From Verrucomicrobiota bacterium (lineage in GTDB: Bacteria > Verrucomicrobiota > Verrucomicrobiia > Opitutales > Opitutaceae), in assembly GCA_026398065.1 (NCBI GenBank), contig JAPLTR010000271.1, positions 1 to 57,429 on the forward strand: DNA of 57,429 nucleotides. The letters run 5' to 3'. Positions within the stretch are counted from its first letter, which is position 1; the number at the start of each line of letters is the position of its first letter. The notes beneath the pieces are model-generated. The model ran no database searches. It saw only the letters and a list, made by a program, of their open reading frames with translations, and was not told where the DNA came from. Made by a program: the position numbers and the translations under genes. Below are positions 6,125 through 32,641 of this stretch, piece by piece.

Positions 6125-6192
6125 ACCTGACGGCGCAACTTCCTTCCGCCCGTCATCTTGACAGTCCCGACGCGCCCCTTGTCACTTCCCGC

Positions 6193-9026: not shown

Positions 9027-9041
9027 TCAAACTCAGGATAC

Positions 9042-9059: not shown

Positions 9060-9065
9060 CGCGCG

Positions 9066-13444: not shown

Positions 13445-14146
13445 ATGTCCTCGACGAATCCCTCCCTCATCAAGCTCGACGGCGTCACCAAGGTCTTCCT
13501 CACCGACGAGGTTGAGACGCACGCCCTCTCTGGCATCCACCTCGACATCCGCCAAGGCGAGTACGTCGCCATCGCCGGCCCCTCCGGCTGCGGCAAGTCC
13601 ACCCTCCTCTCCATCCTCGGCCTCCTCGACTCCCCGAGCGACGGCACCTACACCCTCCACGGCCGCCCCGTCCAGCACCTCTCGCTCCCCGAACGCGCCC
13701 GCATCCGCAACCGCGAGATCGGCTTCATCTTTCAGTCGTTCAATCTCATCGGTGACCTCACCGTCTACGAAAACGTCGAGCTGCCCCTCACCTACCGCGG
13801 CATGCCCGCCAGCGAGCGCAAGGCCGCCGTCACCGCCGCCCTCGAGAAGGTCGGCATGGGCCACCGCGCCAAGCACCTCCCCTCCCAGCTCTCCGGCGGT
13901 CAGCAGCAGCGCGTCGCCGTCGCCCGCGCCCTCGCCGGCTCGCCCGCCGTCCTCCTCGCCGACGAGCCCACCGGCAATCTCGACTCGAAAAACGGCGACT
14001 CCGTCATGGCCCTCCTCGCCGACCTCCACAAGGGCGGCGCGACCATCGTGATGGTCACGCACGACACCCGCTTCGCCCGCCACGCCGAACGCACCATCCA
14101 CATCTTCGACGGTCGCGTCGTGCAGGAGCAGGTCGAGCAGCATTGA
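13445..14146 (+). CDS. MacB/LolD-type ABC transporter ATP-binding protein
   Basis: 233 aa. Walker A GPSGCGKST, Q-loop, signature LSGGQQQRVAVARAL, Walker B VLLADEPTGNLD, and H-loop VMVTHD. Confidence 0.92.
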   Translation: MSSTNPSLIKLDGVTKVFLTDEVETHALSGIHLDIRQGEYVAIAGPSGCGKSTLLSILGLLDSPSDGTYTLHGRPVQHLSLPERARIRNREIGFIFQSFNLIGDLTVYENVELPLTYRGMPASERKAAVTAALEKVGMGHRAKHLPSQLSGGQQQRVAVARALAGSPAVLLADEPTGNLDSKNGDSVMALLADLHKGGATIVMVTHDTRFARHAERTIHIFDGRVVQEQVEQH

Positions 14147-14214: not shown

Positions 14215-16576
14215 GTGCTCTCCGACCTCCGCTTCGCTTTCCGCCAGCTCGCCAAGTCCCCCGGCTTCACCGTCGTCGCCGTCGTCGCCCTGGCCCTGGG
14301 CGTCGCCACCGCGACGACGATGTTCACGTTCTACAACGCGCTCGTCGTCCGGCCGATCCCGTTTCTCCTCCGTCCCCGATTTTAACGACATCCGGCGCAC
14401 GTCGCAGACCCTCGCCAACGCCCTCACGTCTTGGAACCGCACCTACATCCTCGGCACCGGCGAACGCCCGGAGCGCGCCCTCGGCTCCTGGATCACCGCC
14501 GATGCGTTTCAGACCCTCGGCGTCCAGCCCCACCTCGGCCGCCTCTTCCGTCCCGACGAGAGCAAACCCGGCTCCCCGCCCGTCGCGATCCTCAGCTATG
14601 CGCTCTGGAAGCGCTCGTACGGCGGATCGCCCGAGATCCTGAACCAGACCGTCACGCTCAACAACGCCCCGGTCACCGTCGTCGGCGTGATGCCCGAGGG
14701 CTTTGCCTTTCCCGAGCTTTCCCAGCTCTGGCAGCCCTTCCCCGACGACCAGCAGTCGTCCGAAAACGACCGCGGCTCCCACGGCTGGCCGATGTACGCG
14801 CGCATGAAGCCCGGCGTCACGATCGACCAGGTGCAGGCCGAGCTCGACACCCTCGCCGTCCGCCTCGAACAGGACCACCCGAAGACCAACAGCGGCCTGC
14901 GCTTCCGCGCGCTGCTCGTCCACGAGGAGGCCGTGCGCGACGAAAAGCTCGCCCTCCGGCTCATGATGGGCGCGGTCATCGCCGTCCTCCTCATCGCCTG
15001 CGGCAACGTCGCCAACCTCCTCCTCGCGCGCGCCGCCAGCCGCACGCGCGAGATCGCCATCCGCGCCGCCCTCGGCGCCGGCCGGCTCCGGCTCTTCGGC
15101 CAGCTCCTCACCGAGAGCCTCCTGCTCGGGCTGTGCGGCGGCGTCGCCGGGCTCATGCTCACGTTCTGGCAGATCGACTTCGTCCTGGGTTTCATCCCGA
15201 TCGAGATCCCGTTTTGGATCCGCTTCGACCTCGACTGGCGCGTGCTCACCTTCGCGCTCGTCGCCACCCTCGGGTCGAGCCTGCTCTTCGGCCTCGTCCC
15301 CGCGCTCCAGCTCTCCCGCCCCGACCTCGCCCATGAGCTCAAGGACGGCGCCCGCGGCGGCACCGGCTCCGGCCGCTCCCGCCGCTTCCGCAGCTACCTC
15401 GTCGTCGCCCAGCTCGCGCTCACCCTCGTCCTCCTCGTCGTCGCCGGCCTGATGACCCGCAGTTTCCTCCACCTGCAAAACACCGATCCCGGCCTCGATC
15501 CCCGCGGCGTCTTCACCTTCCGCACCGGCATCCCGCAGACCATCGAGCGGGACGAAAAGGTCTGCGCCAAATTCTTCGCGACCGCCGAACAGCGCCTGCG
15601 CGAGATCCCCGGCGTCGAGCAGGCCGGCTTCATCAGCTACCTCCCGGTCGCCAACAACTCCAACTACCACGGCTTCACCCTCGAGGGCCGCCCCGAGGCC
15701 CCGCCCGGCCAGAATCCCCACGCGCTCTTCCGCGTCGCCACACCCGGCGTCTTCCCGGCGCTGCGCATCCCCCTGCGGCGCGGCCGGCTCTTCGATGAAC
15801 GCGACCGCGCCGACAGCCCGCCCGTCGCCCTCGTCAGCGAAGCCTTCGTCCGCCAGCATTTCGCCTCCGAGGATCCCCTCGGGCGCCGCCTCTCCCTCGA
15901 GGAGCAGAAGGACGGCGAGCCGAAACGTTACGCCACCATCGTCGGCGTCCTCGGCGACATCGTCCAGCGCCCCACGGCCAAGGAACCCGAGCCATCCATC
16001 TGGATGGCGGCCGCCCAGAAACCCGAGTATTTCATGAACGCCGTCATGCGGGTGCAGGGCGATCCGGCCTCCTACCAACAGGCCGCCAAGGACGCCGTGG
16101 TCGCCGCCCGCGCCGGCATCCCCCTCTACAATCCCGCTCCGCTGACCAAGATCGCGAGCGACGCGATGTGGTCCCAGCGGTTCTTCGGCGGACTCTTCGT
16201 GGGCTTCGCCGGTGTCGCCCTCTTCCTCGCCGCCCTCGGCATCTACGGGGTCATGGCCTACTCCGTCTCCCAGCGCACCCAGGAGATCGGCGTCCGCATG
16301 GCGCTCGGCGCCGAGCCCGGGGTCGTCGTGCTCATGATCCTGAAGCAGGGACTCCTGCTCGTCGCCATCGGTCTCGCCCTTGGTTTCATCGGCGCCTGGA
16401 TCACCGCCCAGTTCCTCGCGAGCCTCCTCCACGGCATCGAACCCCACGATCCGCCCACGTTCGGCTGGGTAACTGTGATCCTGATCGGCGTGGCCTGGGT
16501 GGCCTGCTGGCTTCCGGCGCGACGGGCCGGCGCGCTGAGCAGCCGCTGGCGTTCGCGCGGCGTCAGCCGGCCATGA
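14215..16576 (+). pseudogene. ADOP-type duplicated FtsX permease, paralogue 1: 5' deletion/frameshift and non-canonical 3' end
   Basis: GTG 14215 gives the family N-terminus (M)LSDLRFAFRQLAKSPGFTVVAVVALALGVATATTMF...RPIPF, then a TAA at ~14384. The family sequence resumes in the +1 frame at ~14366 (SVPDFNDIRRTSQTL...), with roughly 20-25 residues missing. The C-terminus ends LPARRAGALSSRWRSRGVSRP instead of the family ending RRAxRVDPMxALRxE. Confidence 0.7.
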
Positions 16577-16619
16577 AAGGCAAACGCCTGCGCGCTGCCT
16601 GTGTAGGTCCACATCGCCG

Positions 16620-16832
16620 TCAGAGCCCTGCGGCCGACAACTCGCGGTCCGTGCGTTCAAAATCCGCCCGCGAAAATTTCCTCCCTGCGTCCATCTCGCG
16701 CATGAGCATGCTCACGCGTGACCGTCGCGCCGCCGCTTGCGGCTCCGCCTGCTCGCGCAAAAACTCCGCGAGCTCCAGTTTTTCAGCCGCAGTCAGTGCC
16801 TCGGCCGCTTTCTTCATTTCGGCGAGCGACAT
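16620..16832 (-). CDS. Small antitoxin-like protein (addiction-module-component-like), orphan
   Basis: 70 aa: MSLAEMKKAAEALTAAEKLELAEFLREQ...EMDAGRKFSRADFERTDRELS. It resembles the short helical 'putative addiction module component' antitoxins. It lies antisense inside the permease operon, and no intact toxin gene follows. Confidence 0.35.
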   Translation of the reverse strand: MSLAEMKKAAEALTAAEKLELAEFLREQAEPQAAARRSRVSMLMREMDAGRKFSRADFERTDRELSAAGL

Positions 16833-16912
16833 GCTGTCACCATAGCCGCCCACCCCTCTTCGTCAATCCACCACCCCCTCGCCGCGCGTTGCCCGTTGCT
16901 CGCTCCGTCCCC

Positions 16913-19266
16913 GTGCCCGACCTCCGCCACGCCTTCCGCTCCCTCGCCCGCACCCCCGGCTTCACCGTCGTGGCGGCGCTGACGCTCGCGCTCGGCATCG
17001 GGGCCTCCACCGCGATCTTCTCCGTCGTCCACGCCCTGCTCCTCTCGCCCCTCCGCTACGGCGATGCCCGCCCCCTGGTCCAGCTCCGCTCCTCGCACCC
17101 CCAGCAGGGCTTCGCCGGTCTCGCCCCCGCCACGGTCATGGAGATCGCGACCACCGCGCAATCCTTCGAGACCGTCGCGGCGCAGACTTACTACTACTAC
17201 AACCTCACCAAGATCGGCACCGCCGCCCGCATCACCGGCCTCCAGGCCACCGCCGACTATTTCAAACTCTGGCAGGTGGCCCCGCTCCTCGGCCGCACGT
17301 GGAACGCCGACGATTGCCGTGCCGCCAGCCCGCCCGTCGTCGTCCTCTCCGAACAGATCTGGCGCAAATACTACGCCGCCAACCCCGGGATCCTCGACCA
17401 GCCCATCACCATCGACGACGTCGCCGTGACCGTCATCGGCATCATGCCCGCGTCCTTCCAGGATCCATGGGGCAACGGCGGGCTCTGGCGTCCGATCGCG
17501 ACGGACGGCGACGCTCCGCGCGACCGCAGCTCCCGCTACTGGAGCCCGTTCGCGCGGCTCAGGCCCGGCGTCACCCTCGCGCAGGCCAACGCCGAGCTCG
17601 CCACCCTGGCCGCCCGTCTCAGTGAGACGTATCCGGAAAACTATCGCGGCTGGACGCTCGTCACGGGCGACCTCCAGCGCGCCGTCGTCGGCGACTACCG
17701 CACCGGCCTACTCGTCATCCTCGGCGCCGTCGGCTGCGTCATGCTCATCACCTGCACCAACGTCGCCGGCCTCAACGTCGTGCGCGCCGCGGCCCGCCGC
17801 AAGGAGCTCGCCGTGCGCATCGCCCTCGGCGCGTCCCGCGGCCAGCTCCTCGGCGAACTCCTCGCCGAGAGCCTGCTCCTCGCCCTGATCGGCGGCGTCG
17901 GCGGCGTGCTGCTCGGCAGCTGGGGCATCGACGCCCTCCTCGCCACCCTCCCCGGTGGCGGCGGCATCCCTCGCGCCGACGAGATCGCCCTCAACGGCCC
18001 CGTGCTGGCCGCCGCCCTCCTCCTCACCCTCGTCACCGGTCTCGTCTTCGGCCTCGCCCCGGGCTTCACCGCCGCGCGCGTCGACGCCAACGACGCGCTC
18101 AAGGCCACCGCCCGCTCCTCCGCCCATCCCGCCGTGCGGCGGGTCCGCTCCATCCTCGTCGTCACCGAGATCGCCCTCGACGTCTTCCGAGACGACGACA
18201 CCGGTGAGATGCCAGCCGTGTGCTTTCCCTGACCGTCTCCCTCTCCGACCAACGCTACAAGACCCCCGCGCAGCGCCTCGATTTCTACCACCGCGCCCTC
18301 ACCGAAGTGGCCGCCGTGCCCGGCGTCGCCGCCGCGGGCTTCACCAACACGTCGCCCTTCCGCTGGGGCATTCCCGTCACTCTCGTCCCGGTCGGCCGCG
18401 ACGGCACGGTCGCCGAGGCCAATGTCCCACAGACCTACTACGACTCCGTCAGCGCCGACTACTTCCGCGCGGCGGGCATTCCGCTGCTGTCCGGCCGGCT
18501 CTTCGACGCTTCGGACCGGGCCGGCGCCAAGCCCACGGTCATCCTCAGCGAGACCACCGCCCGCCGCCTTTTCGACACCGCCGATCCGGTCGGTCGCGAG
18601 GTCGCCAGCGCCGCCAACCCCGCCTCGCGTTTCGAGGTCGTCGGCGTCGTCGGCGACGTCCGTCGCCTGGGCCTCTCCAGCACGCCGCCGCCCCAGGCCT
18701 ATCGCTCGCTCGACCAGCGCCCCACCGCCTTCGCCACGCTCATGGTGCGCACCACGCTTCCGCCCAACACCCTCGCCAAGTCCGTGACCGCCGCCCTCGC
18801 CCACGTCGATCCCGACACGCCCATTTCCGAGGTGTCCGCCATGGACGCGGTGGTCAGCCGCACGGTCACCCAGCCCCGGCTCTACGTGATCCTCTTCACG
18901 GTCTTCGCCCTGCTCGCCCTGCTCCTCGCCGCCATCGGCCTGTACGGCCTGGTCGCCTACAGCATCGCGCAGCGCACGCGCGAATTCGGCATCCGCGCCG
19001 CCCTCGGCGCCAGCCCCCGCGAGGTCCGCACCCTCGTCCTGCGCGAGGGCCTCCTCCTCGTCGGCGTCGGCCTCGCCCTCGGTTTCGTCGGCGCCCTGGT
19101 CGCCACGCGCTTCCTCGCGGAAATGATCACCGACACCTCCGTGCACGACCCGGTCGTCTTCGTCGTGGTCCCGCTCGTCCTCGCCGCCACCGCCCTCGCC
19201 GCCTGCCTCATCCCCGCCCGCCGCGCGATGCGCGTCGATCCGTCCGTCGCCCTGCGGACGGAGTAG
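16913..19266 (+). pseudogene. ADOP-type permease, paralogue 2: internal deletion/frameshift removing the first TM helix of the second FtsX half
   Basis: GTG 16913 gives (M)PDLRHAFRSLARTPGFTVVAALTLALGIGASTAIFS. The frame ends at 18232 after ...ILVVTEIAL-DVFRDDDTGEMPAVCFP*. The family sequence resumes in another frame from ~18208 (DASRVLSLTVSLSDQRY...) and runs to the canonical end RRAMRVDPSVALRTE*. About 24 conserved residues (ALVLLxGAGLLxRSF..VDPGF) are absent. Confidence 0.7.
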
Positions 19267-19305
19267 CGCGCAGTCTCAAACCACCTCTCACGGCTCGCTC
19301 GCCGC

Positions 19306-19340
19306 CTACTCGCTACTCACTACCCGCTACTCGCTACTTT
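19306..19340 (+). repeat. 5 x 7-bp tandem repeat leader (CTACTCG CTACTCA CTACCCG CTACTCG CTACTTT)
   Basis: Read directly. It is followed by CTCCCC and ATG 19347. Confidence 0.9.
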
Positions 19341-19346
19341 CTCCCC

Positions 19347-21764
19347 ATGTCCGACCTCCGCTCCGCTTTCCGTACCCTGCGAAAGACCCCCGTCCTCTCG
19401 CTCGTCATCATCCTGTCGCTCGCCGCCGGCATCGGCGCCAACACCACCATCTTCAGCTGGCTCAACAGCGCCGTCTTCCACCCGCTCCCCGGCGTCACCA
19501 CCGATCTGATCGCCCTTGAGGCCCGCAACGCCGCCGGCACCTATCCCGGCACCTCGTGGCTCGAATACCGCGATCTCGTGGAACGCCTGCCCTCGTTCTC
19601 CGGCCTCGCCGCCCAGCGTCCGCGCACCTTCTACCTCGGCGACAACGAGCGCGGCGAACGCCTCTGGGGCGAATTCGTCTCCGGCAATTTCTTCGAGGTC
19701 CTCGGCGTGCATCCCGCCCGCGGCCGGTTCTTCCGCCCCGACGAGGCCACAAACCCCGGCGGCGCGCCCGTCGCCGTTATCTCCGATAATTTCTGGCGCC
19801 GTCATTTCTCCGGCTCGGCCGAGGCCATCGGCCAGACCATCAAGCTCAACAACCGTCCGCTCACCGTCATCGGCATCGCCCCGCCCGGCTTCGCGGGCGC
19901 GTTCAACGCCCTCGGCTTCGACGTGTGGATCCCGCTCACGATGTCGTCCGAGCTCATGCCCGCGAGCCGTGAGCTCACCGACCGCGACACCCGCGCCTAC
20001 ATCCTCCTCGGCACGCTCAAGCCCGGCGTCTCCCGCGCCCGGGCCGAGGGTGAGGTCGCCGCCGCCGCCCGCTCCCTCGCCGCCGAACACCCCGGCACCA
20101 ACGACGGCATCCGCTACGAACTCCTGCCGCTCTGGCGCACCCCGCGGGGCGGCGCGATCCTCAGCGGCGCGCTCGCCACCCTCCAGTTGTTCGCCGTCCT
20201 CATCCTCGTCATCGTCTGCGTCAACACCGCCAACCTCCTCCTCGCCCGCGCCTCCGTCCGTCGCCGCGAGATGGGCATTCGCCTCGCCATCGGCGCCGGT
20301 GCCGGCCGCATCATCCGGCAACTCCTCACGGAGAGCGTCCTCCTCGCCCTCCTGGGCTCCGCCCTCGGCCTGCTCCTGGCCCTCTGGGGCGTCGACGCCA
20401 TCCGCCACATCCCCGTCCCGACCAACATGCCCGTGCGTCTCGGGGCCGAACTCGACTGGCGCGGCCTGCTCTTCGCCGTCGGCACCGGAGCCGCCAGCGG
20501 CCTGCTCTTCGGTCTCGCCCCCGCCCTCCAGCTCGCGCGCTCGGATGTGCAGCACGCCCTCCGCGGCGGGCGCGGGACGCTCTCCGGCCGCAGCCGTCTC
20601 CGCGATTTCCTCGTCGGCACCGAGGTCGCCGTCGCCCTGGTCATCCTCGTGCTCGCCGGGCTCTTCCTGAAGAGCTTCCGCAACGCCCAGACCGTGGACG
20701 CCGGCTACTCGGCCGACCGCGTCCTCCTCGCGTCCGTCGATCTCGTCGGCCGAGGCTACAGCCGGGCCACAATGCGCACCTTTCTCCGCGACGCCCAGGC
20801 CCGCCTCGAACAGATTCCTGGTGTTGAGCGCGCCGCCGCCGCCAACACCCTGCCACTCGATGTCCGCGGCGCGCCGAAATCCGCGCTCACCATCGATGGC
20901 GCTCCACGCACGCCCGGCGACACCGCCCAGGTTCTCTTCTACACCGTCACCCCCGGCTACTTCGCGACCATGGGCATCCACGTGGTCAATGGCACCGACC
21001 TCGCACCCCTGGATCAGGAGAAACGCACGCCGGACGCCGTCATCAGCGAGGAAATGGCGCGCCGCTTCTGGCCCGGTGTCTCGCCCCTCGGCCATCATTT
21101 CCGCCTCAGCGAGCAGGACGACGACTACGAGGTCGTCGGAGTCGCCCGGGAGAGCAAATACGAGAGCCTCGCCGAGCGCCCGCAGGCCGCCGTGTGGCTC
21201 ACCGCCCGCACGGGCGCGATCTTCACCCCCGTACTCCACGTCCGCGCCCGCAGCGGCGACCCGCTCGCGCTGCTCACCCCGATGCGCGCCGCCCTGCGCA
21301 CCCTCGATCCCGAGCTCGCGCTCTACGATGGCCGCACGCTCGCCCAACATATCGACAACAACCTCTTCCTCCAGCGCGTCCCCGCGCAGATGCTCAGCCT
21401 CCTCGCGCCTCTCGCCCTCCTGCTCGCCGCCATCGGCCTCTACGCCGTCCTGGCCTACACGGTCGCCCAGCGCACCCAGGAGATCGGCGTCCGCCTCACG
21501 CTCGGCGCCACACCCGCCTCCGTCGTCGGCCTGATCGTGCGCGAGGGCATGCAGGTCGTCCTGTTCGGCGCCGCCGCCGGCTGGCTCGTCGCACTCGCCC
21601 TCGGCTACACCTTCTCCACCCGGTTCGTCGGCGTCTCTCTCGGCGACCCGGTCATCTACGGCGGCATCCCCCTCCTCCTCCTCGCCGTCGCCGCCCTCGC
21701 CTGCTGGTTCCCCGCCCGCCGCGCCGCCCGCGTCGACCCGATGATCGCGCTGCGTGCAGAGTAG
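19347..21764 (+). CDS. ADOP-type duplicated FtsX/MacB permease, paralogue 3 (intact)
   Basis: 805 aa from ATG 19347. MSDLRSAFRTLRKTPVLSLVIILSLAAGIGANTTIFS... Two FtsX-type 4-TM modules, each with a large periplasmic domain. Ends RRAARVDPMIALRAE*. Confidence 0.88.
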   Translation: MSDLRSAFRTLRKTPVLSLVIILSLAAGIGANTTIFSWLNSAVFHPLPGVTTDLIALEARNAAGTYPGTSWLEYRDLVERLPSFSGLAAQRPRTFYLGDNERGERLWGEFVSGNFFEVLGVHPARGRFFRPDEATNPGGAPVAVISDNFWRRHFSGSAEAIGQTIKLNNRPLTVIGIAPPGFAGAFNALGFDVWIPLTMSSELMPASRELTDRDTRAYILLGTLKPGVSRARAEGEVAAAARSLAAEHPGTNDGIRYELLPLWRTPRGGAILSGALATLQLFAVLILVIVCVNTANLLLARASVRRREMGIRLAIGAGAGRIIRQLLTESVLLALLGSALGLLLALWGVDAIRHIPVPTNMPVRLGAELDWRGLLFAVGTGAASGLLFGLAPALQLARSDVQHALRGGRGTLSGRSRLRDFLVGTEVAVALVILVLAGLFLKSFRNAQTVDAGYSADRVLLASVDLVGRGYSRATMRTFLRDAQARLEQIPGVERAAAANTLPLDVRGAPKSALTIDGAPRTPGDTAQVLFYTVTPGYFATMGIHVVNGTDLAPLDQEKRTPDAVISEEMARRFWPGVSPLGHHFRLSEQDDDYEVVGVARESKYESLAERPQAAVWLTARTGAIFTPVLHVRARSGDPLALLTPMRAALRTLDPELALYDGRTLAQHIDNNLFLQRVPAQMLSLLAPLALLLAAIGLYAVLAYTVAQRTQEIGVRLTLGATPASVVGLIVREGMQVVLFGAAAGWLVALALGYTFSTRFVGVSLGDPVIYGGIPLLLLAVAALACWFPARRAARVDPMIALRAE

Positions 21765-21860
21765 TTTTTGCCACGGATTGCACGCCCTAAGGGACTTCCT
21801 CGCTCCGCTCGATCTCCACTGTGCCGCGAAGATTTGCTCATCTGATGGGCGCAGCTCAGA

Positions 21861-22193
21861 TTGGCCGCCTTGAAATCCAGCCTGTCCCGCCCCGACCCCG
21901 ACTTCCCCGCCTTTGTCAGCGAGCAGCTCGCCGCGATCCCCGCGCTCAAGAGCCGCCCGATGTTCGGCGCGCACGGCCTCTATTCCGGCGACACTTTCTT
22001 CGGGATCGTCTGGCGCGGCTCGCTCTATTTCCGGACCTCTCCCTCCACCGTCGCCGACTACGATGCCGCGAATGCCAGCTGGTTTCAGCCCAACCCCCAG
22101 CAGGCCCTGAAAACCTACCGCGAAGTCCCCGCCTCCGTCCTCGCCCGTCCGGCCTCGCTCCTCGCGTGGGCCCAACGCGCCATCGCCTGCTGA
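21861..22193 (+). CDS. TfoX N-terminal-domain protein
   Basis: 110 aa with a TTG start. RPMFGAHGLYSGDTFFGIVWRGSLYFRTS... matches the TfoX_N pattern (MFGG.GLY..G..F......LY.K). Confidence 0.6.
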   Translation: MAALKSSLSRPDPDFPAFVSEQLAAIPALKSRPMFGAHGLYSGDTFFGIVWRGSLYFRTSPSTVADYDAANASWFQPNPQQALKTYREVPASVLARPASLLAWAQRAIAC

Positions 22194-22250
22194 CGTCGCC
22201 CGCGCGCTTTGACGCCTTCGCGGCCCCCAAACCGGTTCACCCCGCAGTCG

Positions 22251-22379
22251 TCCCATTTCTGGGATGACGACGTTCCATCGTCGGACGCGCCGGCGCGCCC
22301 GTCCCGGCTTGGCTAAATTTTTAAGCGTTGCCCCGCCGGGCTTTGCCGCGCGACCCCGCCCCCGGGCACGCCCTCTGCA
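22251..22379 (+). promoter_or_regulatory. Sigma54 promoter module P3 (upstream of permease paralogue 4)
   Basis: GGGCACgccctCTGCA at 22364-22379 has GG-N10-GC spacing. The palindrome TCCCAtttcTGGGA at 22251-22264 lies 100 nt upstream of the GG. AAATTTTT at 22315-22322 sits about 50 nt upstream of the GG. Confidence 0.7.
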
Positions 22380-22489
22380 AACTCCCCCGCGCCGACTCCG
22401 CGCTTACCCAATTTCGCGGATTCCGGTTTTCGTTTTACCACCATTCCGTCCCTCGCCGCTCGCACCGCCACGCCCTCCCGCTCCCTCCG

Positions 22490-25012: not shown

Positions 25013-25072
25013 CCTCCGAAATCGTTCTCTTTCCTCGTTCTCTTAATCTTTCTCCTCCCCCTTTTCCCGCGC

Positions 25073-25128
25073 CACCATTCGTCATTCCCCTCCAATCGAA
25101 AATCGAGAATCCAAAATCGAAAATTCCC
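25073..25128 (+). repeat. 8 x 7-bp phased leader: CACCATT CGTCATT CCCCTCC AATCGAA AATCGAG AATCCAA AATCGAA AATTCCC
   Basis: Read directly. The A/T-rich 35-bp part (25094-25128) recurs at 27647-27680 with one mismatch. Confidence 0.9.
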
Positions 25129-25141
25129 CCCGCCGGCCCTC

Positions 25142-27568
25142 ATGTTTCACGCCCTCAAAACCGCCGTCCGCCAGCTCACCAAGACCCCCGGCTTCACCGC
25201 CATCGCCGTCCTCACGATGGCCGTCGCCATCGGCGCGTGCACCGCCCTCTTCAGCGTTCTCCAAGCCGTCGTCCTCCGCCCGCTGCCGTATCCGAATCCC
25301 GATACGCTCGTCAGCCTCTGGGCCATCAACCCCGAACGCAGCCTTCAGGCCCCCGCTCTGTCCTGGGCGAAGTTTGAGGCCTATCGCACCCGCACCGATG
25401 TCTTCGCCGACATCAGCATGTCCGCCGGCAACGGCTTCACTCTCACCGAGGGCAAGGGCGATCCCGAACAAGTCTTCGGCACCCATGCCTCCGCCAACTT
25501 CCTGCCCATCCTCGGGCTCCAGCCGCTGCGCGGCCGCCAGTTCACCGCCGAGGAGGACAAAGAGGGCGGCCCCTCGGTCGTGATGATCAGCGCGCGCCTC
25601 TGGAAGACCCGCTTCGGCTCCGACCCCGCCATCGTCGGCCGCGTGCTCCAGATTGACGGCGTCGCCCGTGAAGTCGTGGCCGTCCTGCCCGAAAAGATCC
25701 CCGTCCCGTTCAACAACGTCGACATCCTCGTTCCCCGGCCGCTCGAGCTTCCCTACCTCACCCCCCAGCAGCGCGCCAACGCCATCGTTCATCAGGCCAT
25801 CGCCCGTCTCGCCCCCGGCGTCACCCTCGAGCAGGCCAATCTCCGCATCAGGGAGATGGCCGCGCAGTTCAAGGCCGCCAACGCCAACACCCTCGACGCC
25901 GCCAACGCCAACGAGGTCCGCACCATCTCCCAGCAGGTCCTCGGCAACCTCACCCGCACCTTCTGGACACTCGCCGGCGCCGTCGCCGCCGTCCTCCTGA
26001 TCGCCTGCGCCAACATCGCCAATCTCTTCCTTGCCCGCGTCAGCGCCCGGCAGAAGGAAATCGCCGTGCGCCTGTCGCTCGGCGCGCAGCGCGGCGCCGT
26101 GATCCGCCAGTTTCTCGCCGAGAGCACCGTCTTCTCCGTCGTCGCCGGCGGCCTCGGCGTGATGCTCGCCTGGTGGAGCCTCCGCGGCATCCAGCTCCTC
26201 GCCGGCCAGCAGATCCCCCGCGCCGAGGAGATCGGCCTCGACCCCGTCGTCCTCGCGTTTTCCCTCGTGGTCGCCCTCCTCTCCGGACTCCTCATCGGCC
26301 TCTACCCCGCGTTGCAGGCCTCGCGCACCGATGTGCAGACCGTCCTCAAGGACTCCTCCCGCGGGGCCGGCGGCGGCACGGCCGCCAAGGCGTTCCGCCA
26401 CACGCTCGTCGTCCTCCAGGTCGCCGTGTCGCTCGTCCTCCTCATCTCCGCCGGCCTGCTCGTGCGCAGCTTCCACAAGCTGCAGACCGCGGAGCTGGGC
26501 TTCGCCGCCGCCGGTCGCGCCTACGGCATCGTCAACCTCCCGAGCACGCGCTACGCGAAACCCGAGGCCTCCCGCGAATTCTTCCGCCGGCTGCAGGAGC
26601 GCCTCTCCGCCGCCCCGGAGCTCGCCTCCGGCGCCGCCATCAACGGCCTCCCCCTCACCGGCCAGGGCTTCCTCTCGCCCTACGGCGTGCAGGGCCGAGC
26701 GCTCCCGCCCATCCATGAGCGCCCGCTCGCCAATATCCGCACGCTCACCCCCGCGTACTTCGCCACCCTCGACATCAAGCTGCTCTCCGGCCGCTTCTTC
26801 ACCGAGCAGGACCGCTTCGGTGGCGAGAGTGTCGCCATCATCAACGAGACCCTCGCGAAAAAACTGTTCCCCAACGACTCGCCCCTCGACCACGCCTTCG
26901 TCACCGGCCCCAACAGCGACCTCATCACCCGCATCGTCGGCGTCATCCGCGACGTGAAGTCCGCCGGCCTCGCCGTCCCGCCGCCCGACGAGATCTACTA
27001 CCCGCGCGACCAGCGGGGCGGCGCCTTCATGTGTGTCGTCGCGCAGGCCCGGCCCGGCCTCGCCGCCAGCGCCGTCATCCCCGTGCTCCGCCGCCTCCTC
27101 GCCGAGCTCGATCCCACCGTCGCCCTCGCCCTTCCGCAGACGATGGAACAGCTCGTGAGCCAGTCCATCGGCGTGCAGCGCGTCACCATGGCCCTCCTCA
27201 TCTGCTTCGCCGCCATCGCCGCGCTCCTCGCCGCCGTGGGCGTGTATTCGGTGATGGCCTACAGCGTCGCCCAGCGCACCGGCGAGATAGGCGTGCGCAT
27301 GGCCCTCGGCGCAAGCCATGCCGACATCCTCCGTCTCGTCCTCCGCAGCGGCGCCACCCAGGTCGGCCTCGGTCTGGCCCTCGGCCTCGGCGGCGCCCTT
27401 GCCGCGAGCCAGCTCCTCGCCCAGTTCCTCTACGAGGTCAGGCCCTTCGACCCGCTCGTCTTCGCCTCCCTTGCCGCCGCCTTCGCCCTCATCGCCACCC
27501 TCGCCTGCCTCATCCCCGCGAGACGCGCCACCCGCGTCGACCCCATGGTCGCCCTGCGGACGGAGTGA
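25142..27568 (+). CDS. ADOP-type permease, paralogue 5 (intact)
   Basis: 808 aa. MFHALKTAVRQLTKTPGFTAIAVLTMAVAIGACTALFS...RPLPYPNPDTLV... Ends RRATRVDPMVALRTE*. Confidence 0.9.
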   Translation: MFHALKTAVRQLTKTPGFTAIAVLTMAVAIGACTALFSVLQAVVLRPLPYPNPDTLVSLWAINPERSLQAPALSWAKFEAYRTRTDVFADISMSAGNGFTLTEGKGDPEQVFGTHASANFLPILGLQPLRGRQFTAEEDKEGGPSVVMISARLWKTRFGSDPAIVGRVLQIDGVAREVVAVLPEKIPVPFNNVDILVPRPLELPYLTPQQRANAIVHQAIARLAPGVTLEQANLRIREMAAQFKAANANTLDAANANEVRTISQQVLGNLTRTFWTLAGAVAAVLLIACANIANLFLARVSARQKEIAVRLSLGAQRGAVIRQFLAESTVFSVVAGGLGVMLAWWSLRGIQLLAGQQIPRAEEIGLDPVVLAFSLVVALLSGLLIGLYPALQASRTDVQTVLKDSSRGAGGGTAAKAFRHTLVVLQVAVSLVLLISAGLLVRSFHKLQTAELGFAAAGRAYGIVNLPSTRYAKPEASREFFRRLQERLSAAPELASGAAINGLPLTGQGFLSPYGVQGRALPPIHERPLANIRTLTPAYFATLDIKLLSGRFFTEQDRFGGESVAIINETLAKKLFPNDSPLDHAFVTGPNSDLITRIVGVIRDVKSAGLAVPPPDEIYYPRDQRGGAFMCVVAQARPGLAASAVIPVLRRLLAELDPTVALALPQTMEQLVSQSIGVQRVTMALLICFAAIAALLAAVGVYSVMAYSVAQRTGEIGVRMALGASHADILRLVLRSGATQVGLGLALGLGGALAASQLLAQFLYEVRPFDPLVFASLAAAFALIATLACLIPARRATRVDPMVALRTE

Positions 27569-27586
27569 CGATCACCAACCAGCCGT

Positions 27587-27614
27587 CTGCATTCGACCTT
27601 CGTCATTGGTCATT
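27587..27614 (+). repeat. 4 x 7-bp tandem repeat (CTGCATT CGACCTT CGTCATT GGTCATT)
   Basis: Read directly. Same NNNCATT family as 25073, 30145, 35070 and 40634. Confidence 0.85.
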
Positions 27615-27646
27615 TCCCCTCCCGCAACCACCCCGCGGCCCCGCCG

Positions 27647-27680
27647 AATCGAAAATCGAGAATCCCAAATCGAAAATTCC
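27647..27680 (+). repeat. A/T-rich heptad element AATCGAA AATCGAG AATCCCA AATCGAA AATTCC abutting the ATG
   Basis: 33/34 identical to 25094-25127. Directly precedes ATG 27681. Confidence 0.9.
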
Positions 27681-30095
27681 ATGTCTCTCCTCCGCCACGG
27701 CCTCACCTCCCTCCGCCGCGCCCCGCTCCTTGCGCTCACCATCGTCGCGACCCTGGGCGTCGCCCTCGCCGCGACCGTCATCGTCTTTTCGTTTCTCAAC
27801 TCCTTCCTCCTTCGACCCCTCCCCTACGGCGACGGCTCGCGTCTCGTGGTCGTGTATGAGCACTCCCTCGTCGGCGGACGCGACAACTCCACCCGCGTCA
27901 CCTACGGCAATGTCGTGGCCCTCCACGAACGCGCCACCGCCTTCTCGCGCAGCGGCATCTTCCGCAACGAGTCCGCCACCTTCCGCGGCGCCGATTCCAG
28001 CGAGACCGCCTTCGTCCAGCGCGTCACCGCCGAGATCTTTCCGATGATGGGCGCGCGCGCCGCCCTCGGCTCCGTGATCACGCCCGCGAACATCCAGACC
28101 GGCGGCCTCCGCGCCCTCGTGCTGTCCGATTCGCTCTGGCGCCGCCGCTTCGGCGCCGATCCCACCATCGTCGGTCGCACCATCCAGCTCGACCAAACCT
28201 CGTTCCAAGTCGTCGGCGTCATGCCGGCCGACTTCGTCGTGCCCACCGGCGACGACAGCCCCCAGGCCTGGGCCGCCCTCCTCCGCTCCGACTACGATCC
28301 CGCCGAGCGCACCCAGCGCCGCCACCACTTCTGGGGCGAACTCGCCCCCGGACGCAGCCTCGTCTCCGCCGAGGCCGAACTCGCCACCCTCGCCGCCCAG
28401 CTCCGCCGCGAGTTCCCCCGGGAAAACGCCGACCGCGGCCTCCGCGTCGTCTCGCTCCGCGACGACCTGCTCGGCAACTTCGGCCGCCAGTTGTTCCTCC
28501 TGCAGGGCGCCGTGCTGCTCGTGCTGACCGTCGCCTGTTTCAACTGCCTCTGCCTGCTGATCGCCCGCGCGATTCAACGCCGCCGGGAGTTCGCCGTGCG
28601 CCTCGCCCTCGGCGCCTCGGTGCGCCACCTCCTCGCGCAGCTCTTCGCCGAGTCGCTCTGGCTCGCCGTCCCCGCCGCGGCCCTCGCGTGCGGGCTCGCC
28701 GCGCTCGCCCTGCCCTTCGGCGTCTCCCTCCTCCCGCCGCTCGGCCCGCTGCCGGCCCCGCAGGTCGATGCCACCGTGATCGCCGCCGTATCGCTGGCCG
28801 CGGTCGGCCTCGCCGCCATCTTCAGCGCCGTCCCGCTGCTGCAGGCCCGCCGCCTCAATCTCGAGGCCACGCTCCGCGAGGGCGGCCGCACCGCCGGCTC
28901 GCGCGGCTCCGCCCGCGCCGCCCGCTTCCTCGCCGCCGGCCAGATCGCCGTCGCCCTCGCCCTCCTCATCTGCGGCGCGCTCCTGGTCCGCAGCCAGGAC
29001 GCGCTCCAGCGCGTGGATGTCGGCCTGCCCATTGCCGAGTTCGACCAGTTCCGCATCGGTCTCCGCGGCGACGCCTACACGGCCAGTCCCGCCCGCCGCG
29101 TCCAGTTCTTCGAGCGCCTCCGCGAAAACCTCCTCACGATTCCTGGTGTCCGCGACGTCGGGGTGGCGAGCTTCCTCTTCTCCCGCCCACCCGGCGGCTA
29201 CACCGGCTTCGTGCAGGAGGGCGACGGTCTCCAACTCTCCGATACGCCCAAGCGCGCCCTCCCCAACTACGTCCTCCCCTCCACGCTCAACGCCCTCGGC
29301 TTCCGCCTGCTCGATGGCCGCCTCCTCGCCGACACCGACGACGCCAGCCATCCGCCGGTCGCCGTGATCAGCGCCTCTGTCGCCGCCAAATACTGGCCCG
29401 GCCAGTCGCCGCTGGGGAAACGCGTCCGGCTCGACGTCCCCCGCGTCACCGCCTGGGCCGAGGTCGTCGGCGTCGTCTCCGATGTGATCGGCACCGGCGC
29501 CGAGCCGCGCGTGGTCGACACGTTTTATCTCACCATCGCGCAATGGACCCCGCCCGGCCTCGGCATGGGCTTCATCGTCCGCCACAGTGGCACCGCGCCC
29601 GACGAGCGCCAGCTGCAGCGCGCCGTCGCACAGATCGATCCCGCCATGCAGCTCTTCGCCCATCTCTCGCCCTCGGCGATCTATGCCCGCAGTCTCTGGC
29701 AGGTGGGCTTTGTCACGAAACTCGTCGGCGCCTTCGCCCTCATCGCCGTCGCTCTCTCGCTCGCCGGCATCTACGCCGTCAACTCCTTCTTCGTCGCCCG
29801 CCGCATCAACGAATTCGGCATCCGCGCCGCCCTCGGCGCCACGCGCCTTGACCTCCTCCAGCTCGTCCTCCGCGACAGCCTGCGCCTCACCGTCGCCGGC
29901 CTCGCCGCCGGCGCGCTCCTGGCCTTCGCCGCCAGCCGCGGTCTCACCAACCTCCTCTACAACGTCCCCGCCCTCGACCTCCTCGTTTACACGGCCGCCG
30001 CCCTCGCCATGACCCTCGCCTGCGCCGGCGCCACCCTCCTCCCCGCCCGCCGCGCCGCGAAAGCCGACCCCCTCACCGCCCTCCGCGCGGAATGA
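27681..30095 (+). CDS. ADOP-type permease, paralogue 6 (intact)
   Basis: 804 aa from ATG 27681. MSLLRHGLTSLRRAPLLALTIVATLGVALAATVIVFS...RPLPYGDGSRLV... Ends RRAAKADPLTALRAE*. Confidence 0.88.
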   Translation: MSLLRHGLTSLRRAPLLALTIVATLGVALAATVIVFSFLNSFLLRPLPYGDGSRLVVVYEHSLVGGRDNSTRVTYGNVVALHERATAFSRSGIFRNESATFRGADSSETAFVQRVTAEIFPMMGARAALGSVITPANIQTGGLRALVLSDSLWRRRFGADPTIVGRTIQLDQTSFQVVGVMPADFVVPTGDDSPQAWAALLRSDYDPAERTQRRHHFWGELAPGRSLVSAEAELATLAAQLRREFPRENADRGLRVVSLRDDLLGNFGRQLFLLQGAVLLVLTVACFNCLCLLIARAIQRRREFAVRLALGASVRHLLAQLFAESLWLAVPAAALACGLAALALPFGVSLLPPLGPLPAPQVDATVIAAVSLAAVGLAAIFSAVPLLQARRLNLEATLREGGRTAGSRGSARAARFLAAGQIAVALALLICGALLVRSQDALQRVDVGLPIAEFDQFRIGLRGDAYTASPARRVQFFERLRENLLTIPGVRDVGVASFLFSRPPGGYTGFVQEGDGLQLSDTPKRALPNYVLPSTLNALGFRLLDGRLLADTDDASHPPVAVISASVAAKYWPGQSPLGKRVRLDVPRVTAWAEVVGVVSDVIGTGAEPRVVDTFYLTIAQWTPPGLGMGFIVRHSGTAPDERQLQRAVAQIDPAMQLFAHLSPSAIYARSLWQVGFVTKLVGAFALIAVALSLAGIYAVNSFFVARRINEFGIRAALGATRLDLLQLVLRDSLRLTVAGLAAGALLAFAASRGLTNLLYNVPALDLLVYTAAALAMTLACAGATLLPARRAAKADPLTALRAE

Positions 30096-30144
30096 CGAAT
30101 ACCGGATGACGGAGGCCCCCCGCACCGGTCGCCCCCTCGCAATC

Positions 30145-30186
30145 CGTCCTTCGTCACTAGCCATTAGGCATTGGTCATTCGTCATT
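30145..30186 (+). repeat. 6 x 7-bp tandem repeat (CGTCCTT CGTCACT AGCCATT AGGCATT GGTCATT CGTCATT)
   Basis: Read directly. Followed by CCCC, 42 nt before ATG 30229. Confidence 0.9.
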
Positions 30187-30228
30187 CCCCGGTAACCTTT
30201 CCCTTCCCGGCGAGTTTTCGGTTGCGCC

Positions 30229-32641
30229 ATGCTTGCCGATCTCAAGTTCGCCCTCCGCCAGCTCGCGAAATCCCCCGGCTTCACCGCCGTCGCCGTCCTC
30301 TCCCTCGCCCTCGGCATCGGGGCCAACACCGCCGTCTTCAGCCTGATGAAGGCCGTCCTGCTCGAAATGCTGCCAGTCAGGGCCCCGCAGGAACTCGTCA
30401 TCTTCAACTGGCTCGCCGAGGAAAACGTCGGCCCTCAGTCCTCCAGCGGCTGGAGCACCACGGAGCCCGGTTCCAACCAGCGCACCAGCACGTCGTTTTC
30501 CCTCGCCACCTTCGAGGCGTTTCAAAAACAGCCCGGTCCCCTCTCCGCCGTCTTCGCTTTCGCCCCCACCGGTGGATTCAACGTGATCGTCGATGGTACC
30601 GCCGAGATCGCGGGCGGCTGTCAGGTTGCTTCCGGCGGCTATCATCTCGGACTCGGCGTCACGGCCGCCGCCGGCCGCCTTTTCACCCCCGCCGACGACC
30701 TTCCTTCGGCCGAGCCCGTCGCCGTGATTTCGTACCGCTACTGGCAGCGCCGTTTCGGTGGCGACCCGGCCGCCATCGGAAAATCCATCACGGTCAACGG
30801 CGTCCCCACCATCCTGATCGGCGTCACCTCTCCCTCGTTCAACGGCACGATGCAGGTCGGCGAAGTCACCGACATCACGATCCCCCTCGCCCACGAGACC
30901 CGCCTCAGCCGTTCTCCCTACGACAACCGCAAGCCCGGCTATTGGTGGGTCCGCATCATGGGCCGGATGTCCCCCGGCGCCACGCTCGCCCAGGCCCGCG
31001 GCGCCCTGGAGGGCGTCTTTCACGAAACCGCGCGCGGCAACGTCAGCGCGAGCACCTGCCCGGCGCGCCCGCCGTCGACCCCGCCACGATTCCCCTGCCT
31101 CAGCTCCGCGCCGAGCCCGGCGGCCAGGGTCTCTACGAGGCGCGGCGCAACTACGAGCAGTCGCTGCGGCTCCTCCAGGGCGTCGTCGCCCTCGTCCTGC
31201 TCGTCGCCTGCGCCAACGTCGCCAATCTGGCCTCGTGTTCTCCCTCTGGGGGGCGCGGGCCCTCCTTGCCCTGAAGCCGTTTGGCTCCGGCACGCTCGAT
31301 CTCGACACCTCCCTCGACTGGCGCGTGCTGGGCTTCACCTCCGCCATCGCGCTCGCGACCGGCATTGTCTTCGGCCTCGCCCCCGCCCTCCGCGCCACGC
31401 GCCTGAACCTCACCGCCGAGTTCCAGGGCGGCGCGCGCACCCTCGGCGCCGGCTCGCGCTCCGCCCTCGCGAAATCCCTGATGGTCGTCCAGGTCGCCCT
31501 CTCCCTCGTGCTGCTCGTCGGCGCCGGGCTGTTCGTCCGCACGCTGCGCAACCTCCAAAACGTCGATGTCGGTTTCAACCGAGAGCAGTTGCTGCTGTTT
31601 CAGATCAACGCCGCCGCCAACGGCGCCACCGGCCCGCAGTCCCTCGCCCTTTACGAGCGCATGCGCACCCGCTTCACCACCCTGCCGGGCGTCAACCGCG
31701 TCTCGTTCGGCCGCATGCCGACGCTCAGCCAGAACAACTGGACCTCCGGCGTCATGGTGCCCGGCTACGTCCAGACCGAACGCTACGACAGCATCCGCCT
31801 GAACGGCGCCGGCCCCGACTACCTCGCCACCCTCGGAATCCCGCTGCTGCGCGGTCGCGATTTCACCGACCGCGATGTCCACGGCGCGCCCAAGGTCGCG
31901 ATCGTCAACCAGGCCTTCGCCAAAAAATACCTGGGCTCGGAGGAGGAGGTCATCGGCCGCCGCTTCTCCACCGACCGCAAGGCCACGACGCCCGACATCG
32001 AGATCGTCGGCCTGATGCGTGACGCGCAGTATTCCCATGTGAAGACGCCCCCGCCGGCCGTCGCGTTCTTTCCCTACGCCCAGCTCAATCCGGACAACGC
32101 CGGCATGGGTCATTTCATCCTGCGCTATCAGGGTGGCGAGGCCGCGCTCATCACCGCCCTCCGCGCCGCCGCGCGCGAGATCGACGCCACGCTCCCCATC
32201 ACCAACATCCGCACCCAGCAGGAACAGCTCGACCGGCTCTTCACCCAAGAGCGGCTTTTCGCGACCCTGTGCAGCCTCTTCGGCGGCCTGGCCCTCGTCC
32301 TCTCCGCCATCGGTCTGTACGGCCTCATGTCCTACGCCGTCCACCGCCGCACCGGTGAAATCGGCCTGCGCATGGCGCTCGGCGCGCTCCCACAAAACGT
32401 GCTCTCCATGGTCGTCCGCGAATCCCTCGTCCTCGTGCTCGTCGGCGTGGCGGTCGGCGTCGCCGCCTCGCTGGGTGCAACGCGCACCATCGCCAGCCTC
32501 CTCTTCGGCCTCTCCGGCACCGACCCGCTCACCTACGGTCTCGTCGCCCTCGGCCTGATCGCCGTCGCGCTCTTCGCCGCCCTGCTCCCGGCCCGCCGCG
32601 CCAGCCGCATCGATCCGATGCAGGCGCTGCGCACCGAGTAG
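30229..32641 (+). pseudogene. ADOP-type permease, paralogue 7: one frameshift plus an internal deletion
   Basis: ATG 30229 gives MLADLKFALRQLAKSPGFTAVAVLSLALGIGANTAVFS. The family sequence shifts frame at ~31040-31052 (..GVFHETARGN / ..EHLPGAPAVDPATIPLPQLRAEPGGQGLYEARRNYEQSLRLL..ACANVANL). It shifts again at ~31229-31240, resuming at VFSLWGARALLALKPFG. About 45 conserved residues (LLARA..REIAVRLALGA..TESLLLA..) are absent. The canonical end RRASRIDPMQALRTE* is present. Confidence 0.7.

Follow-up and report, generated by a model that had tools for sequence, protein, structure and literature searches.

The window analysed in this study is a whole contig of 57,429 nt (JAPLTR010000271.1) from a Verrucomicrobiota bacterium of the family Opitutaceae. 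On its plus strand, a periplasmic adaptor gene and a gene for a stand-alone ATP-binding cassette (ABC) ATPase are followed by seven homologous genes of ~2.4-2.5 kb, which stand head to tail at 14215-32641 and encode permeases of the ADOP family (TIGR03434). In our judgement the locus is, on balance, a conserved Opitutaceae envelope pump of the MacAB-TolC-like (type VII ABC) kind that consists of shared and variable parts. We demonstrate the list of its parts, their folds, their conserved linkage and the promoter architecture that they have in common, and from the sequences we infer that the adaptor, the ATPase or ATPases and the channel are shared among the permeases. An earlier note on this DNA, hereafter the original prediction, had placed seven ADOP paralogues behind one adaptor and one ATPase at 14215-32641, and both the coordinates and the count proved right. 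According to the TIGRFAMs description, ADOP is an acidobacterial 'orphan' permease without a fused or adjacent ABC ATPase, which is a descriptive trait and not a sequence criterion. We know of no ADOP member that has been characterised, and the family name itself records the absence of a known energising ATPase. Nothing in the locus is categorically new; rather, it gives a testable answer to how ADOPs are energised and why they occur in swarms.

Structure of the permease array

Because the window has a G+C content of 69%, raw lists of its open reading frames (ORFs) were crowded with spurious frames. Genes were called from third-position GC (GC3) profiles, stop-to-stop ORFs, translation and tblastn searches with the intact copies. 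A scan with the fourth permease, P4, that kept one genome per species gave 79 loci; these and further related loci carry L-numbers.

The first permease gene, P1 (14215-16576), lies 69 nt downstream of the ATPase gene and is followed on the same strand by P2 (16913-19266), P3 (19347-21764), P4 (22490-25012), P5 (25142-27568), P6 (27681-30095) and P7 (30229-32641). No eighth ADOP copy was found in the window by tblastn with the intact copies (E <= 1e-3), and the gene after P7 (32707-35019) encodes a fused MFS/spermidine-synthase protein. P3, P4, P5 and P6 are intact genes of 805, 840, 808 and 804 aa that score 821.5, 760.6, 851.8 and 650.4 bits against TIGR03434, above the curated cut-off of 622.3 bits, and each spans profile positions 1-5 to 803. 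P1, P2 and P7, which are pseudogenes, align to the family by tblastn. The family ends quoted in the original prediction are present in the copies, and its head-to-tail order stands; however, the tandem is not uninterrupted, as a 110-aa TfoX_N-domain gene (21861-22193, plus strand; PF04993, 1.7e-21) is wedged between P3 and the P4 promoter. This gene has an orthologue (76% identity) 3.5 kb upstream of P4 in L026 and is probably a passenger.

Each of the four intact copies contains two MacB_PCD (PF12704) and two FtsX (PF02687) stretches in Pfam, and each half of P5 aligns to the membrane and periplasmic region of MacB. The AlphaFold2 (AF2) model of P5 (pLDDT 83.5, pTM 0.71) has eight transmembrane (TM) helices, two periplasmic domains and two coupling helices. 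Its first unit is laid out as TM1 (16-45), a periplasmic core domain (PCD; 56-261), TM2 (270-302), a coupling helix (304-312), TM3 (317-354) and TM4 (368-394); a second unit repeats this four-TM layout at 413-797, with its own coupling helix at 713-721. Type VII ABC permeases are built from such four-TM units, in which a large periplasmic domain follows TM1 and a coupling helix joins TM2 to TM3, and both modelled coupling helices sit where MacB has its major coupling helix. Amphipathic helices are located at the N- and C-terminus, and the halves are joined by a short cytoplasmic linker of ~10 residues (404-412) that is modelled with low confidence. Among known structures compared by Foldseek, the best full-length match is YbbP (9ge6_A, E 3e-20), followed by MacB, Spr0695, LolC/E, BceB and HrtB. 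Moreover, the coupling-helix motif E(I/F)(A/G)(I/V)R-x-(A/S)LGA and a conserved C-terminal helix are kept in both halves of every intact copy. The sequences and the model thus identify each ADOP gene as a predicted complete fused pseudo-dimer of two MacB-type permease units.

The conserved adaptor and ATPase

The adaptor gene (11999-13252, plus strand) encodes a MacA-like membrane fusion protein (MFP) that matches TIGR01730 with 110 bits (cut-off 94.9 bits) as well as HlyD_3 and HlyD_D23. Its AF2 model has a TM helix at 8-36 and a hairpin whose helices, of ~60 residues each, occupy 108-168 and 174-233 at a pLDDT of ~90. A sequence search of the PDB with the adaptor gave no match, and fold comparison alone returned matches, the best of which by Foldseek are the MacA chains of MacAB-TolC at low TM-scores of 0.31-0.42.

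The stand-alone ATPase 1 (13445-14146, plus strand) is of the MacB/LolD/YbbA/DarD type and has all catalytic motifs intact. The best profile scores come from DarD, MacB, LolD, YbbA and FtsE, with no equivalog cut-off passed, and the best PDB match is Spr0694 (5xu1_A, 3.6e-66), followed by MJ0796, the nucleotide-binding domain (NBD) of MacB, YbbA and LolD. This ATPase and the second one of the window, ABC2, which is discussed below, are separate proteins of 220-233 aa that are not fused to a permease. Between the adaptor and ATPase 1 genes lies a micro-ORF of 24 aa (13322-13396, plus strand), MIALTILLALMIAFVAHDTADQQR, with one TM helix and then an acidic tail. Counting the window, 14 of 18 loci have it at this position, in some cases beginning with GTG, and one candidate role for its product is that of a small, AcrZ-like pump subunit.

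Orthologues of this adaptor (73-86% identity) and of ATPase 1 (86-96%) stand at the head of the array in 17-18 Opitutaceae loci. The closest relatives belong to Opitutaceae, Lacunisphaera and Oleiharenicola, and the family is thus not confined to Acidobacteria. By gene order and identity, the adaptor-ATPase-ADOP array is conserved across Opitutaceae, and its permease content varies.

A shared promoter architecture

Four copies of a composite element were found in the window, all on the plus strand. The first (5687-5816) consists of the palindrome TCCCAATCCCGGGA and then the sigma-54 -24/-12 promoter TGGCACGCGCATTGCA. In the second (11849-11977), the palindrome TCCCACTTCTGGGA is followed 114 nt later by GGCACGACCGCTGCA, and the element ends 22 nt before the start of the adaptor gene. 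The third (22251-22379), in which GGCACGCCCTCTGCA comes 114 nt after the palindrome TCCCATTTCTGGGA, is separated from the P4 start codon by 111 nt. In the fourth (56072-56199), GGCACAGCCGTTGCT follows the palindrome TCCCAAAAGTGGGA by ~100 nt. The general architecture is a TCCCA-N4-YGGGA palindrome, an AT-rich patch and a -24 element 113-115 nt from the start of the palindrome. A reading of the intergenic sequences gave GGCACG-N4-YTGCA upstream of both the adaptor and P4, and a -24 GG/-12 GC promoter (TGGCAC-N5-TTGCW-like) stands before all four units. The motif GGCACRNNNNYTGCW occurs four times in the window, always on the plus strand and 22-111 nt before a start codon, compared with an expectation of 0.30; for the full composite element, 0 are expected by chance and four were found. 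The units that the elements precede are a small ORF with the regulator and kinase genes, the adaptor, P4, and a small secreted protein with ABC2.

In relatives, the element is found only in the orientation of the genes. In 14 loci it precedes the adaptor orthologue by 15-38 nt, and L084-L086 also have it there; the same architecture precedes the small-ORF/response-regulator unit in L085 and the ABC2 unit in L021, L080 and L086. Upstream of P4 orthologues it was found in ~24 of 51 Verrucomicrobiota loci and in 0 of 28 Acidobacteriota or other loci. Further genomes that carry the element at ABC2, adaptor or regulator genes include an isolate-derived assembly. In L029, a gene for a periplasmic protein (~1.3 kb, 438 aa, 8658-9974) stands between the sigma-54 promoter and the P4 orthologue, as it also does in L018 and L065.

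The first unit encodes the likely controllers. After a small hydrophobic ORF of 92 aa (MKTSF...; 5846-6124, plus strand), which has an N-terminal signal or TM segment and lies between the first promoter and the regulator, comes a sigma-54-dependent response regulator of the NtrC/AtoC/ZraR type (6190-7560, plus strand) with a receiver, a Sigma54_activat domain (PF00158, 8.6e-62) and HTH_8. The 92-aa ORF gave no family match; a weak homologue occupies the same place in L025, and an 86-aa gene does so in L085. The histidine kinase that follows (7677-9026, plus strand) has two TM helices joined by ~10 residues and then HAMP, PAS and HATPase_c domains. Because it lacks a periplasmic domain, its signal is probably sensed in the membrane or via a partner. 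Orthologues of the regulator (84-92%) lie upstream of the adaptor in L007, L008, L025, L055, L060, L084 and L085; the kinase orthologues are syntenic at 71-84% identity. Regulator and kinase precede the adaptor wherever enough upstream sequence exists. Compared with other species, the window has an insertion here, a kinase-like gene (9066-11729, minus strand) that separates the histidine kinase gene from that of the adaptor.

We infer that the four units form a regulon of the adjacent two-component system, with predicted binding to the palindromes and predicted dependence on RpoN. Since P4 has its own conserved sigma-54 promoter, the array would comprise at least two transcription units. A scan of the array for terminators and sigma-70 promoters gave no convincing plus-strand signal between the genes, and this result neither supports nor excludes internal promoters.

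Divergence and turnover of the permeases

The seven copies are about equidistant, with pairwise identities of 27-36%, which bears out the strong divergence claimed in the original prediction. The identity between paralogues is lowest in the periplasmic domains (27-30% versus 35-43% for the membrane and cytoplasmic parts), and the most conserved regions between copies are the coupling-helix regions and the termini. Among members of the P5 orthogroup, the periplasmic domains are well conserved, at 66-69% identity. Every copy of the window has orthologues elsewhere, at identities of 56-69% (P1), ~70% (P2), 54-72% (P3; L058, L055, L065, L056 and L029), 60-83% (P4), 66-76% (P5), 67-85% (P6) and 45-53% (P7). 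When the 212 ADOP genes of the 79 loci were clustered at >= 50% identity, they fell into 45 clusters, and the seven window copies represent seven separate ones.

The composition of the array varies by species, yet blocks recur, such as P4-P5-P6, which is kept in L001, L004, L022 and L026. A comparison of array size across relatives, which had been proposed as a check, gave 1 to at least 7 ADOP genes within views of 22 kb. Some of these arrays contain adjacent genes of the same cluster, the mark of tandem duplication. For the window itself, we considered and rejected a recent duplication, as the copies share only ~60-80% nucleotide identity over short stretches and no near-identical DNA; judged by these values, the copies are old lineages and not recent duplicates. 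The pattern fits a history in which the periplasmic parts have long been specialised in function while the cytoplasmic interface stayed common, and in which whole genes were gained and lost. The original prediction had offered two explanations, permease 'cassettes' or the active birth and loss of paralogues. The first is upheld by array contents that differ between species and by the 45 subfamilies. The second is upheld in part, by the same-cluster tandem pairs of relatives and three deletion pseudogenes in the window, but the window copies themselves appear ancient. From the sequences, both explanations have support and appear compatible.

P4 belongs to a conserved anchor subfamily, and its orthologues at 60-83% identity were found at 79 loci of Opitutaceae and Acidobacteriota. 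Between Opitutaceae and Vicinamibacterales/Terriglobia (loci L024-L076), P4 is 60-66% identical, whereas the other paralogues are ~30% identical to each other. This suggests either cross-phylum transfer or an unusual constraint. The Acidobacteriota orthologues stand alone, and for 25 of 27 the flanking sequence fetched contains no ABC ATPase gene; therefore, the orphan description on which the original prediction drew holds for them but not for the Opitutaceae arrays, which come with an ATPase. No consistent PadR-type small ORF was found directly upstream of these solitary orthologues, in a test that is noisy from spurious ORFs at high GC. The family as a whole is large: in a full HMMER scan, 60,474 clusters (50% identity) matched P5 at E <= 1e-30, and every one of the top 150 is full-length.

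A proposed pump of shared and variable parts

According to the reading that we favour, a signal at the loop-less kinase would lead the regulator to bind the palindromes, and all units would be co-induced. Each ADOP chain would then dock a dimer of the stand-alone ATPase at its two coupling helices and C-terminal helix, and would engage the common adaptor and a TolC-like outer-membrane channel. Alternative pumps would arise in this way, each distinguished by the periplasmic domains with which it handles substrate. The permease set would be renewed by tandem duplication, relocation and deletion, with three of the seven members having decayed here. In type VII systems with a fused permease, the NBD always comes from a gene of its own (PMC5985334), and YbbAP is a solved example of such a pair (PMC12646458).

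Several observations weigh against this reading. Neither rpoN nor a TolC-like gene is located in the window, and the channel gene is seen only in relatives. The adaptor model has an overall pLDDT of only 69, and its TM-scores are low. The presence of two ATPases gives each permease more than one possible partner. Intergenic gaps of 70-300 nt are no proof of co-transcription. In addition, with three dead copies among the seven, selection does not act on part of the array in this contig. Finally, Acidobacteriota have ADOP genes with neither an ATPase nor an adaptor nearby, so that the family can do without such neighbours, and a gene that does lie next to an ADOP may not be its partner.

In its strongest form, the proposal is a combinatorial machine, in which a conserved chassis of the adaptor, the 24-aa micro-protein, one or two ATPases and the TolC-like channel, under one sigma-54/NtrC-type switch, accepts any of the 45+ ADOP subfamilies as interchangeable specificity modules. 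We regard this form as an attractive possibility that falls somewhat short of probable. If it is true, it would be the first shared-motor architecture for exporters, would name the energising partners of the 'orphan' ADOP family, and would explain how the specificity of efflux or extraction can be diversified cheaply in soil and freshwater bacteria. Energy-coupling factor (ECF) group II modules also have a shared ATPase, and to our knowledge such sharing has not been described for type VII (MacB-like) exporters or adaptor-dependent pumps. One ATPase serves several importers in the cases of MsmK/MsiK, FhuC of S. aureus and MceG of M. tuberculosis (PMC4519317, PMC10147376, PMC9947336). All of these systems, ECF modules included, differ from the present one in being importers with other folds. 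If one motor and one adaptor serve many permeases, the shared-ATPase principle would extend from importers to envelope-spanning exporters. What powers ADOPs, and why there are so many paralogues, can now be tested on a short list of genes.

The second ATPase and its possible clients

The original prediction of a single ATPase is correct for the head of the array but not for the window. ABC2 (56578-57240, plus strand) is a second stand-alone ATPase of the MacB/DarD type, 44% identical to ATPase 1 and with its catalytic motifs intact, and it follows the same type of palindrome and sigma-54 promoter. Additional dedicated ATPases for each permease had been named as the finding that would speak against a shared one; this applies in part, as we found one extra ATPase, which adjoins ADOP genes or a TolC-like gene in relatives, and not one per permease. 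ABC2 is preceded by a gene for a small secreted low-complexity protein (MKTFPL...; 56228-56494, plus strand), for which no family was found; an equivalent gene of 111-119 aa lies upstream of ABC2 in L080 and L081. The ABC2 orthologues are 82-88% identical. They are followed by a gene for a TolC-like outer-membrane efflux protein (OEP), without a permease, in L021, L080 and L086, and by two ADOP genes, without an adaptor, in the isolate genome Oleiharenicola sp. Vm1; in L041 and L068, ABC2 is located just downstream of arrays. The window ends 189 nt after ABC2, and no OEP gene is present among the window genes scanned; behind ABC2 and the same type of promoter, OEP genes were seen only in relatives.

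Because the ABC2-channel unit of L080 lacks a permease, it needs permeases that are encoded elsewhere. In a relative with an 8.86-Mb genome, the P4-P5-P6 block lies ~330 kb from the adaptor-ATPase pair and has no ABC ATPase within 10 kb, and it has kept the composite promoter. Together, the permease-less unit of L080 and this distant block make the strongest sequence-level argument that parts of the system act in trans.

The same facts allow a reading with two motors and fixed clients, in which ATPase 1 and the adaptor serve P1-P3 and ABC2, which brings the TolC-like channel, serves the unit led by P4. The conserved promoter that P4 has to itself would be expected in that case, as would the detachment of the P4 block from the adaptor and ATPase 1 in L026/L084 and the places at which ABC2 adjoins a P4 orthologue (L021), arrays (L041, L068) or two ADOP genes (Oleiharenicola). 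However, P4 stands directly behind ATPase 1 in many loci (L002, L007, L055, L062), and ABC2 is ~24 kb from the array in the window and ~90 kb from it in the L015/L080 genome. Furthermore, the ABC2 units have no adaptor, although a tripartite pump needs one. We consider fixed clients unlikely, though less so than the alternatives that follow.

The surroundings of ABC2 include several other features. The ~23 kb between the array and the ABC2 unit are filled with unrelated genes (a sulfatase, ThuA/DUF7133 giants), and an IS630/DDE_3 transposase gene (35148-36281, minus strand) lies just downstream of the array. The transposase, the inserted kinase-like gene and the separation of the array from ABC2 suggest local rearrangement. 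At the contig end (57273-57429, plus strand), an ORF begins with a signal peptide and continues to ...SQFIYILRLVPRLH. Its homologues lie directly downstream of ADOP genes in L009, L020, L052, L054 and L079, and its product may be an accessory periplasmic protein.

Comparison with known systems

MacAB-TolC (E. coli, A. baumannii, A. actinomycetemcomitans) resembles the locus in a four-TM unit whose periplasmic core separates TM1 from TM2, whose major coupling helix connects TM2 with TM3 and whose C-terminus carries a minor helix, in its MacB/LolD-type NBD, in an adaptor with a TM anchor and a long hairpin, and in the TolC-like gene that relatives carry in a co-regulated unit. In contrast to the separate NBD and fused eight-TM chain found here, MacB has its NBD fused N-terminally and forms a homodimer from one gene. 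Seven alternative permease genes per adaptor and ATPase, a number that rises to 8 or more in relatives, as well as sigma-54/NtrC-type regulation, also set the present locus apart. DarBCD (NF038007/8/10) likewise combines a long FtsX-type permease (777 positions), an adaptor and a separate ATPase, and DarD is the best NCBIfam model for both ATPases. However, the scores remain far below the cut-offs (DarD 251-253 versus 375, DarC 74 versus 450, DarB <= 45 versus 700), the darA/darE biosynthetic context is absent here, and Dar has a single permease.

The ADOP family itself is represented by full-length matches of P3-P6, by the domain duplication and by the conserved ends. The present members differ from its description in that they occur in Opitutaceae and not in Acidobacteria, stand behind an adaptor and an ATPase, share promoters and are not orphans. 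Genomic island 43 of Psychroflexus torquis (PMC3914696) is similar in being a 42-kb cluster with ~ten ADOP paralogues, ATP-binding transporter genes and pseudogenes; it also holds an addiction module and is highly translated (PMC3914696). It belongs to Bacteroidota and is a genomic island, and no adaptor, ATPase or sigma-54 logic, orthogroup analysis or mechanism was proposed for it. Many MacB homologues and truncated copies are mentioned in passing for an Opitutaceae symbiont (PMC8636102). In the literature searched, we found no description of variable ADOP arrays headed by an adaptor and ATPase, of their sigma-54 regulon, of the second ATPase-channel unit or of the micro-ORF.

Two further systems bear on a function other than efflux. 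YbbAP-TesA of E. coli (PDB 9GE6-9GE8; PMC12646458) has, like each ADOP, a single-chain duplicated permease with two periplasmic domains and a separate ATPase dimer, and YbbA is among the top matches of ATPase 1. YbbP, however, has 10 TM helices, two of which link the halves (PMC5985334), whereas the P5 model has eight, and the sequence identity is ~13%; BceB, like YbbP, has two extra linking helices and 10 TM helices (PMC5985334). The partner of YbbAP is the esterase TesA, with one permease gene per ATPase, and the genes scanned in the window include none for an esterase. In BceAB-BceRS, too, a type VII ABC transporter is encoded beside a two-component system, and the kinase of that system has no sensor domain outside the cell. 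Unlike an ADOP, BceB has a single extracellular domain and 10 TM helices; its module lacks an adaptor and a channel, and the regulator BceR is of the OmpR type and depends on sigma-70.

From these parallels, ADOPs might be devices of mechanotransmission, in which ATP drives movements in the periplasm and no substrate passes through the membrane, and might extract membrane lipids or lipoproteins or control periplasmic enzymes (as YbbAP-TesA, LolCDE and FtsEX do); some might be sensors for the kinase, as BceAB is for BceS, and the adaptor and channel would then serve only some of them. YbbP as the best full-length structural match agrees with this, as do the kinase without a periplasmic sensor domain, which recalls Bce-type modules, and the small periplasmic-protein genes that accompany arrays. 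The partners that type VII systems have in the periplasm are typically diverse (PMC12646458). Nevertheless, no neighbour is as constant as the adaptor gene, and relatives have a TolC-like gene in the co-regulated unit. In addition, no conserved hydrolase or LolA-like partner gene is found in the array, and the regulator is NtrC-type, whereas those of Bce modules are OmpR-type. We hold a non-efflux role to be improbable.

Decay of three copies

The lesions of P1, P2 and P7 were read by alignment to the closest intact orthologues and by inspection of the DNA. In P1, 10 nt replace ~78 nt after RPIPF (14364-14378), a deletion of ~68 nt with a frameshift in which ~22-26 codons are gone. At its 3' end, the last ~12 codons after ARRA (~16530) are swapped for unrelated sequence, a segment of ~360 nt (16530-16912) that, in comparison with L015, also stands in place of a whole ADOP gene. 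In P2, ~25 codons of the TM5 region are missing at 18178-18208, where there is also a frameshift. The reading frame of P7 shifts near 31100-31145, and a deletion of ~40 codons at 31229 removes its first coupling-helix motif. Orthologues of all three are intact in relatives: those of P1 in L015 (69%), L039 and L048, that of P2 in L015, and those of P7 in L058 and L049. The claim that three of the seven copies are disrupted was thus accurate, and the multi-codon deletions, which are not single-base errors, mark P1, P2 and P7 as true pseudogenes. As the window is an entire contig, read-level confirmation of the lesions would still be desirable.

Within the segment that replaces the end of P1 lies an ORF of 77 aa (16620-16853, minus strand) with a sigma-70-like promoter (16866-16839). 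It has no Pfam or NCBIfam match and one weak homologue, in L004. By eye only it looked like an antitoxin; without a family match, we left it unnamed.

The disrupted copies invite the view that the array is a relic of birth and death, in which one or two permeases matter, the rest are redundant and drift to loss, and no cassette logic exists. Three deletion pseudogenes among seven copies, arrays that range from 1 to at least 7 genes and the same-cluster neighbours of relatives are what this view would lead one to expect. However, the copies are old (27-36% identity), and their orthogroups are kept at 50-85% across species, periplasmic domains included. Moreover, only ~5 of 201 ADOP genes in related loci look disrupted, compared with three of seven here (Fisher p = 0.0012), and the decay is therefore a peculiarity of this contig and not of the system. 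A mere relic is, in our view, as improbable as a non-efflux role. That the lesions are assembly artefacts and all seven copies intact in the organism is barely credible: although the window is a whole metagenomic contig and paralogues in GC-rich DNA pose problems for assembly, the lesions consist of deletions of ~46-120 nt and a segment replacement and not of homopolymer slips, the paralogues share only 60-75% nucleotide identity over short stretches, which is too little for collapse, and no other long gene of the window is disrupted, not even the two of ~1,470 codons.

Other features of the window

No RNA family was found when the whole window was scanned against Rfam with gathering thresholds. 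Near-identical AT-rich repeats of 35 nt (AATCGAAAATCGAGAATCC(C)AAAATCGAAAATTCC) lie directly before the start codons of P5 and P6 (25094-25128 and 27647-27680, plus strand), and repeats of the TTCGTCATT type lie upstream of P5, P6 and P7 (25060-25075, 27595-27615 and 30150-30195). These AT-rich intergenic repeats were rejected as a part of the conserved system, being specific to the contig and rare in related loci. The GC skew is strongly negative (-0.2 to -0.29) at 6000-57429 despite genes that are mostly on the plus strand, and it likely reflects a preference for C at third codon positions rather than the replication strand.

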